Virus record (IMG/VR): IMGVR_UViG_3300028549_001461
Coordinates: 97,222 to 161,221 of that record
Strand: one strand, 5' to 3'
DNA: 64,000 nucleotides
Source of the DNA: a virus
The position numbers and the translations under genes are program-made. Of this stretch, positions 27,138 to 64,000 are shown piece after piece; the first letter of the stretch is position 1, and each line of letters begins with the position of its first letter. The notes beneath the pieces were generated by a model. That model saw only the letters and a program-made list of their open reading frames with translations. It searched no databases and was not told the DNA's origin.

Positions 27138-27209
27138 GGCTTTGTAACTCAGAGGTAGAGTGCTTCCCTGAAGAGGAAGAGGTCGATAACTCAAAATTAT
27201 CCAAAGCCG
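27138..27209 (+). tRNA. tRNA-Phe(GAA)
   Basis: GGCTTTG/CAAAGCC, CTTCC-CTGAAGA-GGAAG; atypical T loop CTCAAAA. Confidence 0.8.
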
Positions 27210-27614: not shown

Positions 27615-27700
27615 GGAAAGCGTCCGGCTGGACGAGGAGCCTGTCTTGAAAACAGGTAGCGGCTTAAAAACCGTTTGGGGTTCGAGTCCCTAGCTTTCCG
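27615..27700 (+). tRNA. tRNA-Ser(UGA)
   Basis: GGAAAGC/GCTTTCC, CCTGT-CTTGAAA-ACAGG, long V arm, G73. Confidence 0.85.
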
Positions 27701-27703
27701 AAT

Positions 27704-27782
27704 GCGGGTAGATAAGCACTGGGTGCTAAGGGACCTTCCAAGTCTCGGTCTTTGACGTGGAGTTCGATTCTCCCTACCCGCT
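27704..27782 (+). tRNA. tRNA-Gly(UCC), non-canonical fold with V arm
   Basis: GCGGGTAG/CTACCCGC, GGGAC-CTTCCAA-GTCTC, U73. Confidence 0.75.
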
Positions 27783-32954: not shown

Positions 32955-33266
32955 ATGAAAATAACTTGGTACAGATATGAAGACACATATAGAGTAGACC
33001 CACCAATTACTGTACAATTTAATGAAGTTACCAGCAGAGAAGGAGCTTTTGAAGATTTGTTACGTGTAATTACAGAGGATTTTGAGCCTTGGATTACAGA
33101 ACATTGGCCAGAAATAAATGGCTTGGTCACTTTACATAGTTGGCCTGATATAAATACTGACTTTAAAAAGATACAGTATATTGAAGACACATTCTCAGTA
33201 AATATGTTATACGGTATACCTATGTGGCGTGATAGAGTTACAGGAAAATTAACTTTTATAGATTAG
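32955..33266 (+). CDS. Hypothetical protein
   Basis: ORF track. Confidence 0.55.
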   Translation: MKITWYRYEDTYRVDPPITVQFNEVTSREGAFEDLLRVITEDFEPWITEHWPEINGLVTLHSWPDINTDFKKIQYIEDTFSVNMLYGIPMWRDRVTGKLTFID

Positions 33267-33274
33267 GAGATCTT

Positions 33275-33316
33275 ATGGAAAACTCAGGTTTTACATAGAA
33301 CAATAGATCACCGTAA
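33275..33316 (+). promoter_or_regulatory. Amber-containing leader ORF MENSGFT(TAG)NNRSP(TAA)
   Basis: AGGAGA RBS at 33265-33270; TAG 33296-33298; downstream hairpin 33308-33368 covers next RBS. Confidence 0.6.
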
Positions 33317-33373
33317 CTAAGATTATTATTTAAAGTTGCTAATTAAATCAATAATCTTAATTCGGAGAACTAT

Positions 33374-33685
33374 ATGAAAACTATGAAAGAAATGAAAGCT
33401 TATTTAAAAGAAACCGCAGTAAAAATAAAAGAAGCAAAGAAACAAAGAAAAGGTGCCACATATGGCTTTGTGGAGGTTTTAGATTCCTATAACCCACAGA
33501 TAAATTTAAGATATCAATACAGACATCACCATATAGCCTACAGCTTACTACGTGGACGTACTATGGAACAGATAGAACGTACCTGTAGAGAAGATAATAA
33601 ACCTAATGAAGATTATTATAATTTACTTATGATACCTATAATTAGAATAAAAAGAGAAGAGGAGCTATTACAAAATGTCGCTTAA
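33374..33685 (+). CDS. Basic hypothetical protein of the amber module
   Basis: GGAGA RBS; YRHHHIAYSLLRGR motif; overlaps next gene by 11 nt. Confidence 0.7.
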   Translation: MKTMKEMKAYLKETAVKIKEAKKQRKGATYGFVEVLDSYNPQINLRYQYRHHHIAYSLLRGRTMEQIERTCREDNKPNEDYYNLLMIPIIRIKREEELLQNVA

Positions 33686-33968
33686 ACTCTATGTAGTAAC
33701 TCGTAAGGATTTGTCAGTATCTCAACAAGCTGTTCAGGCTGGCCATGCTTTGGCAGAATATTTATTAAATAGAAAAACTGAATGGCGTAATGGTACTTTG
33801 GTTTATTTGTAGGTTTCTGACGAAAATGCATTAAAGTACTTGACATGTTCTTTAAAAAATAGTAATATTGATTATGTAGAATTTAAAGAGCCTGACAGAG
33901 CCAGTGAACTAACAGCTATTGCCAGTTTGGGTAGCAATAAATTTTTCAAAAAACTAAAACTATTATAA
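33675..33968 (+). CDS. Pth2-like peptidyl-tRNA hydrolase with one in-frame TAG (codon 46), not in ORF track
   Basis: MSLKLYVVTRKDLSVSQQAVQAGHALAEY...WRNGTLVYL*VSDENAL...FKEPD...LTAIA...LKLL; Pth2 motifs on both sides of TAG 33810-33812. Confidence 0.8.
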
Positions 33969-33973
33969 AACAA

Positions 33974-34010
33974 AAGGTCTGTTTCTAAAATATTATTATT
34001 AACAGACCTT
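33974..34010 (+). promoter_or_regulatory. 10-bp hairpin between Pth2-like gene and suppressor tRNA
   Basis: AAGGTCTGTT/AACAGACCTT followed by ATTCTT. Confidence 0.5.
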
Positions 34011-34016
34011 ATTCTT

Positions 34017-34088
34017 GCTTCTATAGCTTAATGGTTAAAGCGGCAGTCTCTAAAACTGCACATATGGTTTCGATCACCATTAGAAGCA
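34017..34088 (+). tRNA. Amber suppressor tRNA (CUA anticodon)
   Basis: GCTTCTA/TAGAAGC, GCTT/AAGC, GCAGT-CTCTAAA-ACTGC, ATGGT-TTCGATC-ACCAT; all stems fully paired; A73. Confidence 0.9.
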
Positions 34089-34103
34089 TATAAGGAGTAT
34101 TAT

Positions 34104-34322
34104 ATGGATATTACAGTAAAAGAACTTTCTAAATTAAAACAAGAAGCTGAAAGTGACATAGCTAAAGAAGTGTCCAGAATTTTAGAAGACTTTAAAGAAA
34201 AATCCGGGATACGTTGTGCAGATCACTCTGTATATATAGATATGGTTTACTCAAGAACGATAGACAATAAATATTCAGAAGCATTTGTGTCTGATGCTTC
34301 AATAAGAATGGAGATTTTTTAA
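34104..34322 (+). CDS. Hypothetical protein
   Basis: AAGGAG RBS. Confidence 0.6.
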   Translation: MDITVKELSKLKQEAESDIAKEVSRILEDFKEKSGIRCADHSVYIDMVYSRTIDNKYSEAFVSDASIRMEIF

Positions 34323-34711
34323 TGGACACTAAACAAGTTATAGTAATGCGTAAAGATTTAAATATGAGGAAAGGCAAAATGGTGGCACAAGGTAGCCACG
34401 CTAGTTTAGCAAATATATTAAAAGAATTGGATTACGACTCTTGTGTAGCTTCTCACGAACCTCCTTGGTTTAATGATACTATAATACATTGGCTAGAAAA
34501 TTCTTTTGCTAAAGTGTGTGTTGGTGTTAATTCTGAGGCAGAATTGTTGTCTATCTATGATCAAGCCACTCAAGCAGGTTTGTTATGCTGTTTAATAAAA
34601 GATTCAGGAAGAACTGAATTTGGCGGCGTCCCAACGTATACTTGTCTTTGTGTGGGGCCTAATATTAATGAAGACATAGATAAAATAACAGGACATTTAG
34701 CACTTTTATAA
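34322..34711 (+). CDS. pth2: Peptidyl-tRNA hydrolase Pth2 (intact)
   Basis: KQVIVMRKDLNMRKGKMVAQGSHA, KVCV, DSGRTEF, TCLCVGP, IDKITGHLALL. Confidence 0.92.
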   Translation: MDTKQVIVMRKDLNMRKGKMVAQGSHASLANILKELDYDSCVASHEPPWFNDTIIHWLENSFAKVCVGVNSEAELLSIYDQATQAGLLCCLIKDSGRTEFGGVPTYTCLCVGPNINEDIDKITGHLALL

Positions 34712-34721
34712 GGAGTTAAAT

Positions 34722-35033
34722 ATGGAATTATTTAATAAGTATTTTGAAGCTAAGACTGAATTGCTAAGTTTTTTTAACTGCGATACATTATTTAATAATG
34801 CACATTCTATTTATAGAAATGACCTTTGTTATTGGGAAATACTTGAAGACATTGTGTATGTCTCTTATAATTTAGACAATGTTAGGAATATTAAACTTGA
34901 TTATTGCGATAAATATTTCGCTTTCGATAAAATATGGATTTATCCTAGTAAGGAATACACACTTCTACATTTAAAAACTGGTAATTCAGGTGTATTTGAG
35001 ATATATTTAAATAAGATGAGGATGTATGATTAA
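34722..35033 (+). CDS. Hypothetical protein
   Basis: AGGAG RBS. Confidence 0.55.
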   Translation: MELFNKYFEAKTELLSFFNCDTLFNNAHSIYRNDLCYWEILEDIVYVSYNLDNVRNIKLDYCDKYFAFDKIWIYPSKEYTLLHLKTGNSGVFEIYLNKMRMYD

Positions 35034-35364
35034 AAATAAGTTGACTAAAAAAATAAAAAATGTTAAAGTAACAAAAAAAATAAAATCAGAAGTTAAAAAA
35101 GATAAAGCTATACATAAGCCTTATAAAAAACTAACAAAAGAAGAATATGCAAGAGCTCTTCAGCACCCAAAGTGGCAAAAGAAAAGATTAGAGGTTTTTG
35201 AAAGAGATAATTGGCAGTGTGTAGAATGTGGAGATACAGAAACAACCCTACATTTACACCATTTGAAATATACTACAAAGTTTCCATGGAATGAGAAATC
35301 AATAAATTTAATAACATTATGTAATTCATGCCATGCCAAGGCGCACAGATTGCTGAAAAGATAA
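35026..35364 (+). CDS. HNH endonuclease
   Basis: PKWQKKRLEVFERDNWQCVECG, LHLHH, NLITLCNSCH. Confidence 0.85.
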   Translation: MIKNKLTKKIKNVKVTKKIKSEVKKDKAIHKPYKKLTKEEYARALQHPKWQKKRLEVFERDNWQCVECGDTETTLHLHHLKYTTKFPWNEKSINLITLCNSCHAKAHRLLKR

Positions 35365-46967: not shown

Positions 46968-47436
46968 GGAAATATATTATGGCAAAAGATTATTTAGGAC
47001 GTGAATTATTTGTCGGAGATGAAGTTGTATTTATGCAAATTCGTTATAGGGGGCTTATGAAAGGTGTAATAAAATCTCTATCAAAACTTAAAGCTACTAT
47101 AACTCATGAAAGAACTAATGTTGGCTCTGTAGAAAGTATACAATTCCAGGATCAAATCATAAAGATTACTGCCCCGTAAATTTTTGGGGATATGAATAGA
47201 GGGCTGGTCAAGAGAGTTCCCGCTTCGCAGTATTTTAAAAAATTTATAACATAGAAACCAAGCATTTAAAAGCAGTAAAGAAACAAACAAAGAAACTAAC
47301 AACAGTATCAATGTCAGTAATCACTAAGTTAACAGTAGTACTTACGCCGCCAAAAGCCTGTAGCACAGTAGTGGTACTAAGTTGTTTTTGAGAATGAGTA
47401 GTACGTTTGTAAAATTTAAAGAGAGAATCTACTAAT

Positions 47437-48183
47437 ATGATCATTATAAACACCACAAATGAACAAACTAAATTAAGAGAAAATGGTAGGATAGTGGGGG
47501 TAGTGCATAAAGAACTAAAAAAATTAATACGTCCTGGTATAACTACTTTATTTTTGGATAAGATTGCTGAAGAAATAATTCGTAGTGAAGGGGCTACCCC
47601 AGTATTTAAAGGATACAAAGGATATGATTTTAGTACTTGTATTTCTGTTAACGAAGAAGTTGTACATGGTAGACCTAATGCACAAAGAGTATTACAAGAT
47701 GGAGACATAGTATCAGTAGATGTAGGTACAAATAAATTAGGCTACTGTGGAGACGCTTGTTTTACCATTGGAGTTGGTGTAATAAGTCGAAAAGCGGAGG
47801 GTTTACTAAAAGCTACCAAAGGAGCTTTAAATGCCGCTATAAGCGTAGTTAAAGAAGGTGTGACTACTGGTATGGTTGGTAGCATTATCGAAGCGTATGC
47901 GGCAAATAAAGGCTTTTCTGTTATAAAAGAATATGGAGGACATTCAATAGGTAGAGAGTTACACATGGATCCGTTTGTGCCTAATTATGGTAGACCTATA
48001 GAAGGGCAAAAACTTAAAGCAGGATGTTGTGTTTGCATAGAGCCTATACTTTGCTTAGGTAGTCCTGTTAATCATAGATTAAAAGATGGCTGGACAGTTG
48101 TTACAGATGATAAATCATTAAGCGCTCATGAAGAACACCAAATAATAGTACATAAAGACTACGCAGAAATTATAACTAGCTAA
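47437..48183 (+). CDS. map: Type I methionine aminopeptidase
   Basis: CISVNEEVVHGRP, GDIVSVD, GHSIG, IEP, SAHEEH. Confidence 0.95.
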   Translation: MIIINTTNEQTKLRENGRIVGVVHKELKKLIRPGITTLFLDKIAEEIIRSEGATPVFKGYKGYDFSTCISVNEEVVHGRPNAQRVLQDGDIVSVDVGTNKLGYCGDACFTIGVGVISRKAEGLLKATKGALNAAISVVKEGVTTGMVGSIIEAYAANKGFSVIKEYGGHSIGRELHMDPFVPNYGRPIEGQKLKAGCCVCIEPILCLGSPVNHRLKDGWTVVTDDKSLSAHEEHQIIVHKDYAEIITS

Positions 48184-56762: not shown

Positions 56763-56822
56763 AATTCTCCTTAAATAAAGACAAATTTAATATCATTATA
56801 ACAATATTCTATGAGTATACCA

Positions 56823-57080
56823 CTACATCTCTAAAATGTGACTAAAAGAAGATGCCAAATCATCTCTTATACCCAATGATTGTAAAGTACATTCATCAGG
56901 TACTGTTATTGTAGTATAATGAAAACCATCACCATCAATACCCACAATATCATCCCAACCTAATTTACCATCATCATGTAATTTTTCTGCTTTTGTTATC
57001 CACTCTTTACTAAATGTAAATTTTGGTATATACGAACCATCCATACTATCTTGTACTAATACATATAATTCTTTTGACAT
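56823..57080 (-). CDS. Hypothetical protein
   Basis: ORF track. Confidence 0.55.
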   Translation of the reverse strand: MSKELYVLVQDSMDGSYIPKFTFSKEWITKAEKLHDDGKLGWDDIVGIDGDGFHYTTITVPDECTLQSLGIRDDLASSFSHILEM

Positions 57081-57092
57081 AATATTATCTAC

Positions 57093-57545
57093 CTATTTAT
57101 AATAAACCAAAGCATTAAACTTACCAAGTGTTTTATCTACAATTTTTTCGACTACGCTCCAATTACCACCTGCAAGACCACAACCAATTTTTGGTAATCT
57201 TATTTCCCAAGTACTATACTTTTCAGCAACAGTAGCCATGCACTTTTCTATAGCTTCATACTCAGCATATAGTCTGTTGTCTCTTCCGTAATAATATTGT
57301 GTGTAACAATTAAGAATATGTAAGTTATCAGAAATAACTGCAGTACTAAAAGTACCTAATTTTTTTCTATCTCCTCTAATTGTTTGTGTTATATCAGCAG
57401 TGTACACTTGAGGAAATTTATTTTTTAAATATTTTGCTATCCCAGAGCCCATGGTGTGGAAACAGTTACATCCGTGAAGAATTACTGTTTTCTGATTATT
57501 GATATCTAAATTACTCAATATATCAGCTTTAATTGTGTTTATCAT
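57093..57545 (-). CDS. Macrodomain (ADP-ribose processing) protein
   Basis: HGCNCFHTMGSGIA, NCYTQ, PKIGCGLAGGNW. Confidence 0.88.
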   Translation of the reverse strand: MINTIKADILSNLDINNQKTVILHGCNCFHTMGSGIAKYLKNKFPQVYTADITQTIRGDRKKLGTFSTAVISDNLHILNCYTQYYYGRDNRLYAEYEAIEKCMATVAEKYSTWEIRLPKIGCGLAGGNWSVVEKIVDKTLGKFNALVYYK

Positions 57546-57553
57546 AATAATTA

Positions 57554-58297
57554 TTAACTCCTTATAGAATAGTTCCAGCCTAGTTTCGTGTGTATAGCTT
57601 CAAAAAAAGATGTAAATTTAACTAATTTAATTATGATATCACTTTTAACTATAGTCATATTGTACAATGTGTCTTCAAAAACAGGTACACCATCTATATT
57701 TATCTCTGCTTTCTTAGATGTTCTTAGTGTTAATTTAGATGTATCTGAAATTATCAATGGCCGGGCTGCTAAAGAGAAAGGACATATAGGCGCAATACTT
57801 ATTACGTTTGTATTTGGTTGAACTATAGAGCCACCTGCAGACAAATTATATGCTGTTGATCCAGACGGTGTTGAAATAATAACTCCATCACCTTTGTAAT
57901 TTAGATTATTATCATCTACTTTTAATTGTATATCAAACAATTGACCTCTTTTTACAGCCTGTACAACTACTTCGTTAAAGCCTACAAATTCTTTATTTTC
58001 AATAATAATTTTTAAAACACTTCTGTTTTCTATTTTTGATTCATCAGGATTTTTAAGGAACTCCATAACTTGCTTTTTAGTTATATCATTAGATAAAAAA
58101 CCAACATGTCCTGTGTTAATACCAAGTATAGGTATATGTGTCATGTCATTTTCTATTAGTAGTTGACTAGCTCTTAGTATAGATCCATCTCCACCATCAA
58201 CTACAAAAATACCAGCTTGTTTAATATTATTTACTCTGTCTGGGCCATTGATATCTGTGCAAGGAATTGCTTGTCCATTAGTGTAGTAGTCTAACAT
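57554..58297 (-). CDS. NAD kinase
   Basis: GGDGS, GINTGHVGFL, NE, GDG, STPSGSTAYNLSAGG, IDG. Confidence 0.9.
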   Translation of the reverse strand: MLDYYTNGQAIPCTDINGPDRVNNIKQAGIFVVDGGDGSILRASQLLIENDMTHIPILGINTGHVGFLSNDITKKQVMEFLKNPDESKIENRSVLKIIIENKEFVGFNEVVVQAVKRGQLFDIQLKVDDNNLNYKGDGVIISTPSGSTAYNLSAGGSIVQPNTNVISIAPICPFSLAARPLIISDTSKLTLRTSKKAEINIDGVPVFEDTLYNMTIVKSDIIIKLVKFTSFFEAIHTKLGWNYSIRS

Positions 58298-62923: not shown

Positions 62924-63148
62924 TTACTTTTTTTTCTTTGCTGCTACTTGTCTTATGATCTTACTTTCTTTCTTATTGGGTACATGCTCACGTTGGTTAA
63001 GTTCTTCTTTCAATTGAAAAGTTGTCCAACCATATTCATTATCATATGGAGAATAAAATCCGCCACATTTACGAGCTTTTTCTAATAGCTTCATTAATGT
63101 TTTTGTGTGTTTACTTTTTAAGTCTAATGCGATCATTTTTGTCACCAT
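62924..63148 (-). CDS. Hypothetical basic protein
   Basis: LKEELNQREHVPNKKE. Confidence 0.55.
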   Translation of the reverse strand: MVTKMIALDLKSKHTKTLMKLLEKARKCGGFYSPYDNEYGWTTFQLKEELNQREHVPNKKESKIIRQVAAKKKK

Positions 63149-63158
63149 TAATTTTTTA

Positions 63159-63294
63159 TGCCTCGTGGTAGATTCGAACTACCGTCTTTCTTTTATCATA
63201 AGAGAAGTAACCATGCTATACACCACTTGTTTTATTAAACAAGGGAACTAGTTAACAAGGTGGCTTAATGCTCTACCAATTGAGCTAACGAGGC
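63159..63294 (-). ncRNA. tRNA-shaped RNA with ~80-nt structured insert in place of the anticodon arm
   Basis: GCCTCGT/ACGAGGC acceptor, GCTC-AATTGGTA-GAGC D arm, GGTAG-TTCGAAT-CTACC T arm. Confidence 0.75.
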
Positions 63295-63304
63295 GTACTA
63301 AGAA

Positions 63305-63829
63305 CTATTTTTCTAAAATTAAATACATTTGATTTATCAAAGTTTCTGCTTTTGCTCTTAAAATAGCACTTGCTTTTGTTAAATTCCACAAGAGCTGTCT
63401 CTTTTCTTCCAAGTACGTAGGAGCAAATACTGGATCGCATAATACAATACCTTGAATATTATGTAGCATGTCAGCTACTTTCAGATCTTGTGAATATGCA
63501 GTGCCGTTACAGTAATGTATTCTATCAATCTCTTTTCTTACTTTTCTGGAACCATCTTCTTTTGTTGCTTTTTCAGTAGCATAAAATACAGTACTTGCTA
63601 CAACTTCTCCAAAGCGTTCATGTATAACTTCTAGTGTGATGTCTTTACAATCTTCAACAGTATCGTGTAGTAAAGCTGCTGCAAGTACCTCGGCATTATT
63701 GGCATAAATTTCTGTTAATATACCCATTACTGCAAGTGGGTGTTGTATGTAAGCAGTGCCACCGAATTTTCTAAACTGTCCTTTATGAGCTTCCATTGCA
63801 AATTGAAAAGCTTTTTCAATGAGTGGCAT
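63305..63829 (-). CDS. HD-domain (p)ppGpp hydrolase-like protein (small alarmone hydrolase fold)
   Basis: AHKGQFRK, YIQHP, ALLHDTVED, KVADMLHN. Confidence 0.85.
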   Translation of the reverse strand: MPLIEKAFQFAMEAHKGQFRKFGGTAYIQHPLAVMGILTEIYANNAEVLAAALLHDTVEDCKDITLEVIHERFGEVVASTVFYATEKATKEDGSRKVRKEIDRIHYCNGTAYSQDLKVADMLHNIQGIVLCDPVFAPTYLEEKRQLLWNLTKASAILRAKAETLINQMYLILEK

Positions 63830-64000
63830 AATAACATCCCTAATTTTTAATTACAATATTCTTTACAAGTTTTAATACTATATTCGTTTAATACGATTGT
63901 TCTACCTTTATTAGCATATCCGTAGTCATATATGTAATGACCTACTTCTTGCTTTCTTTTTTCATCCCACCAAGTTACCCAGTATAAATGGCAATTTGAA

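Follow-up and report, generated by a model that had tools for sequence, protein, structure and literature searches.

A leader, a partner gene, a Pth2-like gene and a tRNA(CUA) in a standard-code phage: a candidate operon gated by readthrough of UAG

We report on a gene cassette in a stretch of viral DNA of 64,000 nucleotides (nt), called the window in the following, which comprises bases 97222-161221 of the 161-kb IMG/VR virus record IMGVR_UViG_3300028549_001461 (GC content 33%). As judged from its recurrence in related loci, the conserved unit consists, in this order, of a short leader open reading frame (ORF), a partner gene, a gene for a small protein with the fold of peptidyl-tRNA hydrolase 2 (Pth2), and a tRNA with the anticodon CUA (tRNA(CUA)). 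The leader ends with TAG, and the Pth2-like gene is interrupted in frame by TAG at its codon 46 (TAG46). Our preferred reading, which we hold with moderate confidence, is that the operon would be translated only while UAG is read through, the leader being an attenuator that senses readthrough and the TAG in the Pth2-like gene a second gate. A preliminary description of this stretch, made from the sequence alone, had stated that no account of such an arrangement was known. None was found in the literature searched on the design of the cassette either, including the preprint of Borges et al and a survey of jumbo phages from 2026, and a published description of a leader, partner, Pth2-like gene and tRNA(CUA) cassette therefore appears to be lacking. 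What this analysis contributes is the clade that shares TAG46 together with a test for selection on it, a count of how often TAG was gained independently, the fusions of the partner, and statistics on the reading frame of the leaders.

The Pth2-like gene contains a single in-frame TAG and neither a further stop codon nor a frameshift. Three more sequencing runs, which belong to two other studies, yielded contigs that have TAG at 33810-33812 unchanged and differ from the window elsewhere, one of them by 25 differences in 746 nt; read mapping to confirm the TAG codons had been proposed in the preliminary description. In a large collection, the two closest proteins (79% identity) come from other samples and are listed as translations with TAG=Q; in their DNA, too, codon 46 is TAG. 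TAG46 is also kept in the related loci L121-L124 (related loci are numbered with L), and in the tree its carriers form together with the window a clade with a support of 98, the sisters of which, L040 and L041, have AAA at this place. Within the clade the Leu codon adjoining TAG46 varies (TTG, TTA, CTA), the proportion of synonymous differences (pS) is 0.35-0.70, which means that synonymous sites are close to saturation, and the ratio of nonsynonymous to synonymous substitution rates (dN/dS) downstream of the TAG is 0.07-0.38. By these comparisons TAG46 is to be regarded as real, not as an error, and as selected. Column 46 of the family is occupied by G, K, S, N, A, T, R, V, Q or E.

Residues 3-73 of the readthrough protein of 97 amino acids (aa), a part that extends across the TAG, match the Pfam profile PTH2 (PF01981) with 22.7 bits at a cut-off of 23. 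Profile positions 1-82 of 115 are covered, and with 19.6 bits in the scan of the genome the gathering threshold is not reached. The AlphaFold model of this protein has a mean predicted local distance difference test (pLDDT) value of 93.6 and the α/β fold of Pth2; the top matches found with Foldseek are 2zv3, 3erj, 1wn2, 1q7s and 1xty (probability 1.0, template modeling score 0.68-0.79). All of the 24 residues that are invariant in the family are present, on both sides of TAG46. Together with the low dN/dS this bears out the statement of the preliminary description that the interrupted gene keeps Pth2 motifs before and after the TAG, which speaks against decay. The likeness to Pth2 lies in the fold and in the signature R-x-D...Q-x-x-H-A. 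Unlike Pth2, the protein lacks the C-terminal fifth of the domain (approximately 20 residues), comes with a partner protein, to which it is sometimes fused, and has a deletion of two residues in the GxGK loop, where an invariant Gln (Q17) takes the position of the catalytic Lys (profile alignment to 2zv3 and 24bt). This Lys has been reported to be essential for catalysis in Pth2 of Sulfolobus.

To follow the TAG through the family, 78 distinct sequences were considered, namely those of 73 non-redundant related loci (out of 80 loci found by protein and profile searches of IMG/VR), the window, two short assembly contigs and two cultured phages. Internal stop codons occur at five places (codon 4, 34-36, 46, 59 and 69), and all of them are TAG, never TAA or TGA. 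TAG at codon 34-36 is found in 8 loci, TAG at codon 46 in the clade of the window and independently in L075, and the tree demands at least eight separate gains of TAG. Close relatives differ, as L090 has TAG at codon 34, L088 at codon 69, and L093 none. Among the partner genes, which are co-translated, only 1 of 55 contains an internal TAG, and this one belongs to a decayed locus.

Two of the homologues belong to cultured phages, Cronobacter phage GAP32 (L036, JN882285.1) and Yersinia phage fHe-Yen9-04 (L037, NC_042116.1), both at locus positions 2474-2812 and both with TAG at codon 4. The genes start with M-A-Q-TAG or M-S-H-TAG, and the GenBank annotation gives a truncated coding sequence (GAP32_397) or nothing at this place. 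In GAP32 a tRNA(CUA) is located at positions 293273-293344 of the record, approximately 2.9 kb downstream of the Pth2-like homologue. The Lak phages, in which TAG is recoded, also have a Pth2-like homologue.

Both TAG codons of the cassette (33296 and 33810) lie upstream of the fully paired tRNA(CUA) at 34017-34088, just as had been described before. The tRNA is of the amber-suppressor type and matches Rfam family RF00005 with 67.3 bits (gathering score 29); it forms a full cloverleaf with the anticodon CUA at 34050-34052 (cta in ARAGORN), a C-U-CUA-A-A loop and discriminator A, and CCA is not encoded. The fold of positions 33960-34095, which include the tRNA, has a free energy of -33.7 kcal/mol (z -5.2). 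A tRNA(CUA) is present in 62 of the 73 non-redundant loci. In 61 of these it follows the gene on the same strand, with a median distance of 46 nt, and it is the commonest tRNA of the related loci (74 of approximately 450 tRNAs). These tRNAs diverge widely in sequence and in their discriminator bases. The anticodon loop Y-U-CUA-A-A is found in 63 of 67, with A37-A38 kept, and A37-A38 is the context of efficient amber suppressors. One relative, the complete 488-kb genome of L117 (G006), has a tRNA with the anticodon UCA, which is of the opal-suppressor type (L170:1690-1760). Its Pth2-like gene contains an internal TAG, and no tRNA(CUA) occurs among the 39 of its 68 tRNAs that were readable.

A further argument arises from the leader. 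In 36 of 45 non-redundant loci the partner gene is preceded, at a distance of 80-130 nt, by an ORF of a few codons that is led by a Shine-Dalgarno sequence (SD) and has a terminal TAG. The stop codons of SD-led mini-ORFs at this place are TAG 36, TGA 3 and TAA 1 times, compared to TAA 259, TAG 248 and TGA 201 (TAG 35%) for the background of SD-led mini-ORFs from the same loci. All 36 related leaders have an SD before their ATG, and most of them consist of M-X-TAG only. The leaders of L040 and L041 (M-x-K-S-G-F-V-TAG, with the extension x-x-R-S-P-TAA) resemble that of the window. Behind the TAG the extensions in the family typically comprise approximately five in-frame codons and end with (R/K)-(G/S/P)-P-P-stop, so that RGPP, RSPP, RPP or KPP precedes the final stop of the relatives. 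Where TAG also forms the second stop, continued reading arrives at a final R-G-P-P or R-S-P-P and then at TAA or TGA. One TAG per leader is present in 18 loci, two in 7 and three in 3. Three TAG codons in series are found in L066:5619-5700 and L068:5609-5690 (M-F-K-TAG-I-K-(I/V)-P-P-TAG-V-R-G-P-P-TAG), followed by V-L-L-TAA in L066 and F-L-L-TGA in L068, with the sequence complementary to the partner SD (anti-SD) at the last stop. Such triple-TAG leaders give the impression of counting several events of readthrough.

In 30 of 31 loci the leader frame reads the first CCNCC behind the TAG as Pro-Pro, and any base is seen at the third position of either Pro codon (T 11, A 10, G 2, C 2 for one and A 8, C 7, T 6, G 4 for the other). 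This frame bias, together with the free third positions, is an argument that the extension is constrained as coding sequence and hence that the TAG is read through. In 35 of 36 leaders a purine comes directly after the TAG; after the genuine TAG stops of the record the next base is T in 12, G in 7, C in 3 and A in 1 case.

The end of the extension is also part of a predicted hairpin (33303-33373) that pairs with the SD of the partner gene. Its minimum free energy (MFE) is -17.1 kcal/mol (z -3.8), and 1 out of 200 shuffled sequences folds as well. The anti-SD is formed by the Ser-Pro codons TCACCG (33308-33313), which pair with the partner SD GGAG (33364-33367) just before ATG 33374. The same layout is found with unrelated sequences in L040, L041, L121, L102, L083, L066 and L118, and in L121 CCNCC pairs perfectly with the partner SD. 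Of 28 MFE folds, 24 have 75% or more of the partner SD paired, compared to 44% of 254 control genes, and in 22 of 24 loci the anti-SD is located between -12 and +11 nt relative to the final stop of the leader. An RNA structure that hides a downstream SD and overlaps the proposed stall site, as is characteristic of arrest-peptide attenuators, is thus predicted for the window.

From these features the following course of events may be proposed. Ribosomes would initiate on the leader at 33275. If a release factor terminates at UAG 33296, the hairpin would stay closed with the partner SD paired, and there would be no translation of the partner gene and hence none of the Pth2-like gene, whose start overlaps the partner end. 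If the tRNA(CUA) decodes the UAG, the ribosome would move five codons on to Arg-Ser-Pro-UAA, remain on the 5' arm of the hairpin and thereby free the partner SD. Translation termination after Pro is slow. In the lineage of the window the Pth2-like gene would require a second readthrough at codon 46, so its output should rise steeply with suppressor activity. Partner and Pth2-like gene are probably translationally coupled, as the latter starts 11 nt before the stop codon of the former. Our observations concern the features of the sequence and how they are conserved, the constraint on the frame, and purifying selection; from these we infer the dynamics of the ribosome. A competition between suppressor and termination that gates the Pth2-like protein had already been suggested in the preliminary description; the selection on TAG46, the repeated gains of TAG and the conservation of the leader argue for it. 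The coordinates of all features are collected in Table 1.

Table 1. Features of the cassette and of the adjoining region in window coordinates.
Feature	Position	Strand	Remark
Shine-Dalgarno sequence AGGAG of the leader	33265-33269	+	Overlaps the TAG stop (33264-33266) of the preceding gene
Leader ORF M-E-N-S-G-F-T, TAG 33296-33298	33275-33298	+	ATG 33275, 7 codons; proposed first amber gate
Readthrough extension N-N-R-S-P, then TAA (33314-33316)	33299-33316	+	Proposed stall and termination site
Hairpin pairing the end of the extension with the partner SD	33303-33373	+	MFE fold
Partner gene, 103 aa, all-helical	33374-33685	+	Unnamed family
Short gene of Pth2 fold, 97 codons, in-frame TAG 33810-33812 (codon 46)	33675-33968	+	Proposed second amber gate
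Hairpin of 10 bp, then AUUCUU	33974-34010	+	Between the stop of the Pth2-like gene and the tRNA
Amber-suppressor-type tRNA	34017-34088	+	Rfam RF00005, ARAGORN, MFE cloverleaf
72-aa ORF	34104-34322	+	Between the tRNA and the canonical PTH2 gene; lineage-specific
Canonical gene of the PTH2 peptidyl-tRNA hydrolase family, 129 aa, no internal stop	34322-34711	+	PF01981

The interpretation of the TAG codons depends on the genetic code of the phage. ORFs cover a fraction of 0.946 of the 161-kb record with the standard code, 0.960 if TAG is read as sense and 0.959 if TGA is read as sense. As the gain with TAG is no greater than the gain with TGA, the record is not recoded and uses the standard code. 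In the recoded control Lak-B5 the coverage rises from 0.61 to 0.89, and only with TAG as sense. The relative G001 (94% complete), whose homologue has TAG in the same column, likewise uses the standard code (0.946 standard, 0.978 with TAG and 0.966 with TGA as sense). TAG terminates 23 of the 164 ORFs of the record (14%), among them the gene directly upstream of the leader, and neither the giant virion-type ORFs nor the long ORFs of 399-1,353 aa within the 161 kb contain any TAG. These values are in agreement with the earlier statements that the window is not globally recoded, that many of its genes end in TAG and that long virion ORFs are free of it.

Besides the leader and the Pth2-like locus no convincing gene with an in-frame TAG was found in the 161-kb record, and none of its 18 uncovered gaps of at least 100 nt contains a second convincing amber-interrupted gene. 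Three candidates on the minus strand (62924-63850, 56796-57599 and 47244-47984) were rejected, being separate TAG-ending genes or shadow ORFs. Within this region an HD-domain-like gene (63305-63829, minus strand) and a macro-domain-like gene (57093-57545, minus strand), both recognized by sequence motifs only, are each terminated by TAG and followed by a small ORF in the same frame, so that at first sight they resembled additional genes interrupted by amber codons. A frame of 3,338 codons was also rejected as a single readthrough gene, since it represents two genes split by TAG, SD and ATG. It lies upstream of the window (G000:C1:57857-67870) and consists of giant ORFs of approximately 2,271 and 1,067 codons in one frame, with only TAG, GGGGA and ATG between them. 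From the TAG-bearing ORFs listed for the relatives G001 and G002 no regulon could be defined, as the list contained too much noise. An all-against-all BLAST of the ORFs from the loci gave few further homology-supported TAG codons in the TAG-bearing loci, many of the matches being antisense shadows.

Several points weigh against an operon gated by readthrough. The hairpin is AT-rich and, with -17 kcal/mol, of modest stability; pairing of the SD is common in MFE folds, as the value of 44% for control genes indicates; and no more than 10-15 nt separate the UAG from the anti-SD behind it, which means that the base of the hairpin may already be disturbed by a ribosome that is still at the UAG. The leader of the window ends with R-S-P-TAA and thus has a single Pro where most relatives have R-x-P-P, and R-S-P is not a tested arrest motif. 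Decoding of UAG by the tRNA(CUA) is a prediction, and similarity does not assign an amino acid to it, the best values being 70-74% to mixed isotypes and the discriminators being variable. Neither an RF-1 domain or release factor nor a class Ic synthetase (GlnRS/GluRS) was found in the record, which is incomplete, with an estimated completeness of only 61%. Strong suppression should be costly given the 23 phage ORFs that end in TAG. As approximately 85% of the family members have no internal TAG, the second gate would be optional. With the catalytic Lys replaced by Gln and the C-terminal part gone, hydrolase activity of the Pth2-like protein is not assured.

Other explanations of the TAG codons have to be weighed against this. 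A local suppressor could make TAG near-neutral in the neighbouring gene and in the leader, so that the codons would be tolerated passengers that drift without regulatory meaning. The majority of family members without internal TAG, the location of the TAG sites in variable columns and loops (the loop at codon 34-36, column 46) and the differences in place or presence among L090, L088 and L093 would fit such drift, but tolerance should reach all genes expressed with the tRNA, and yet no other gene of the 161 kb carries such a TAG, and among the co-translated partner genes of the related loci it is 1 in 55. TAG46 is moreover kept despite near-saturated synonymous sites, and a leader TAG that recurs in 36 of 45 loci, is frame-locked to Pro-Pro-stop and stands in a purine context speaks for design and not for drift. 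We therefore consider passengers unlikely. More improbable still, in our view, is ordinary recoding, in which the tRNA would serve many TAG codons of late genes in the 39% that are not sequenced, as in phages with genetic code 15, and the two in the cassette would be two of many. The estimated completeness leaves room for such genes, the TAG-recoded Lak phages share the Pth2-like homologue, and Borges et al describe suppressor tRNAs together with the recoding of late genes (10.1101/2021.08.26.457843). It is opposed by the giant virion-type and other long ORFs without TAG, by the coverage with the standard code and by the nearly complete relative G001, in which the TAG in the same column goes along with the standard code. 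For phage XacN1 an in-silico readthrough of 18 amber stops uncovered no added database similarity, and its authors could thus not name targets for the CUA tRNAs (PMC5852040).

The leader could also act without being read through. Its translation would then always terminate at the TAG, and CCNCC would be kept as anti-SD only; in a variant of this explanation the leader would be a minigene that causes drop-off of peptidyl-tRNA like the bar minigenes of phage lambda, and the association with a Pth-like gene would then be accounted for. M-X-stop is the format of the lambda bar minigenes and also that of most leaders, and CCNCC is complementary to GGNGG SDs, up to the perfect pairing seen in L121. 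An element acting as RNA only does not account for a CCNCC that is held in the leader frame in 30 of 31 loci with an in-frame stop directly after it, for Pro codons with freely varying third positions, or for leaders with two or three serial TAGs that hold the frame to a final R-G-P-P-stop, and we give this explanation about as little weight as ordinary recoding. The Pth2-like gene might finally be a broken gene or an assembly error, a pseudogene whose role has been taken over by the canonical PTH2. An intact canonical PTH2 gene does follow 350 nt downstream, and the Pfam score stays just below the cut-off, but the TAG recurs in independent runs and samples without any frameshift or other stop, the invariant residues and the purifying selection downstream of the TAG are preserved, the model is of high pLDDT, and interruptions in the family are exclusively TAG. 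A pseudogene is accordingly very hard to believe. It is the gating of the operon by readthrough that we compare with known systems below.

A close likeness is seen to the leaders of arrest peptides (ApdA, ApdP and ApcA with RAPP or RGPP, SecM with RAGP, and Streptomyces leaders), in which a short upstream ORF with Arg-x-Pro-Pro is located beside an RNA structure that hides a ribosome-binding site (RBS). RAPP and RGPP are robust arrest motifs (PMC10951233, PMC7897499, PMC12992588). A ribosome held at the motif would expose the RBS, and the relatives of the window carry RGPP, RSPP, RPP or KPP in the corresponding position before the stop. Unlike in arrest peptides, the motif of the cassette is reachable only through one to three in-frame UAG codons, and the peptides are far shorter (8-20 residues). 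The position of the motif behind UAG implies that the input signal would be the activity of the suppressor tRNA and not secretion or membrane insertion. The version in the window, R-S-P-stop with one Pro, also differs, and arrest at this place is a prediction from the sequence. With the leaders of ermC, cat-86 and cmlA and with the Pro-stop of TnaC the cassette would share the principle that the position of the ribosome in the leader decides on the pairing of hairpin and SD; the trigger would be a stop codon read by a tRNA of the same operon instead of an antibiotic or a small molecule.

Phages with code 15, in which TAG is read as Gln (Lak, crAss-like), resemble the phage of the window in that they have their own tRNA(CUA) in a host with the standard code, and an in-frame TAG has been proposed as a post-transcriptional regulator in them. 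The genome of the window is, in contrast, not recoded, and the only targets with support from homology are two neighbours of the tRNA, the leader and the Pth2-like gene. Borges et al report suppressor tRNAs, "code change modules" and standard-code relatives with a suppressor tRNA; a hydrolase, a partner protein or a leader is not mentioned there (10.1101/2021.08.26.457843). In prfB, the gene of RF2, an early in-frame stop codon in the gene of a translation factor serves, much as is proposed for the cassette, as a sensor for the termination efficiency at that stop. RF2 limits itself through an in-frame UGA and a +1 frameshift and senses its own product, whereas the cassette would depend on plain readthrough by a tRNA.

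The partner gene has the motif (Y/F)RHxHIAYCxLRGRxxEQIE. In the window it shares its last 11 nt with the beginning of the Pth2-like gene, and it is located directly upstream of that gene in at least 52 of 82 loci. In one clade both are fused in a single ORF (L101-L105, L107-L109; e.g. L101:799-1362), which suggests that the partner and the Pth2-like protein work together. In L106:5695-6306 a TAG connects the partner to a Pth2-like part that does not have its own start codon. The model of the partner protein is all-helical with a pLDDT of 92. No match was found in Pfam, PHROG or, with Foldseek, in the PDB, and nothing usable in the ESM Atlas; VIA-align returned only generic helical hairpins (Z up to 5.7). 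With E up to 0.001 the profile of the partner collects 1,720 clusters at 50% identity, and the proteins of this family are mostly 90-115 aa long. The preliminary description had noted an ORF between leader and Pth2-like gene and was right about its presence, but its identity as a conserved partner protein had been missed.

As to the function of the two proteins, they probably act on the suppressor tRNA or on by-products of suppression, for instance ester-linked tRNA species. Possible roles are to limit suppression, as a homeostat that shields the 14% of genes ending in TAG, to clean up products of readthrough, or to reinforce suppression. It is conceivable, though we would call it doubtful, that the whole cassette is a self-contained readthrough homeostat, in which an arrest-peptide leader measures UAG decoding and switches on a Pth2-derived effector and its partner, and these act back on the tRNA or on ester-linked products. 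If so, a phage with the standard code could run controlled stop-codon suppression, and a function would be found for the "orphan" suppressor tRNAs of large phages as well as a plausible first step towards a change of the genetic code. Suppressor tRNAs of standard-code phages, such as those of XacN1, have hitherto not been known to have targets. The locus supplies targets for such a tRNA, namely its own neighbours, and has a bearing on how genetic-code change begins in phages. If the readthrough model holds, the decoding of a stop codon would be a new input for leader-peptide attenuation, assembled from known parts, i.e. an arrest-like motif and an RBS-masking hairpin. Two large protein families are defined, one with the Pth2 fold that lacks the catalytic Lys and one of helical partners (at least 1,720 clusters), both of which presumably handle tRNA or the consequences of readthrough. 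Synthetic circuits intended to report amber suppression or to limit it could draw on the cassette for compact natural parts, and cultured relatives such as Cronobacter phage GAP32 make the system testable.

The remaining features of the region lie around the tRNA. The hairpin between the Pth2-like gene and the tRNA might terminate transcription weakly or serve in processing; it is absent from the calls of the terminator scan, and L121 and L122 have an analogous hairpin after the Pth2-like gene. The canonical PTH2 gene matches PF01981 with 108.5 bits over profile positions 2-115 of 115, above the gathering threshold, and keeps the motif RKGK...HA. It is found nearby only in L040, L041 and L049, and homologues of the 72-aa ORF, which has no match in Pfam or PHROG, only in L040 and L041. 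By this distribution both genes stand outside the conserved unit. The module composed in the preliminary description of leader, ORF, Pth2-like gene, tRNA and a second Pth2 gene is therefore retained except for its last member. Directly downstream of the cassette follows a gene for an HNH endonuclease (35026-35364; Pfam HNH, 22.9 bits), which is also present in L040 and L041.

A nucleotide search against isolated phages returned a single match of 37 nt, and the scan for promoters gave no more sites than in shuffled sequences. None of the runs listed as holding the stretch is recorded as RNA, the wastewater runs labelled "RNA-Seq" being only guessed to be RNA. Elsewhere in the window a tRNA at 27138-27209 is recognized by Rfam (59.4 bits) and absent from the ARAGORN list, while ARAGORN reports tRNAs at 27615-27700 and 27704-27782 that are absent from the Rfam gathering table. 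This disagreement indicates that some tRNAs of the cluster are atypical.

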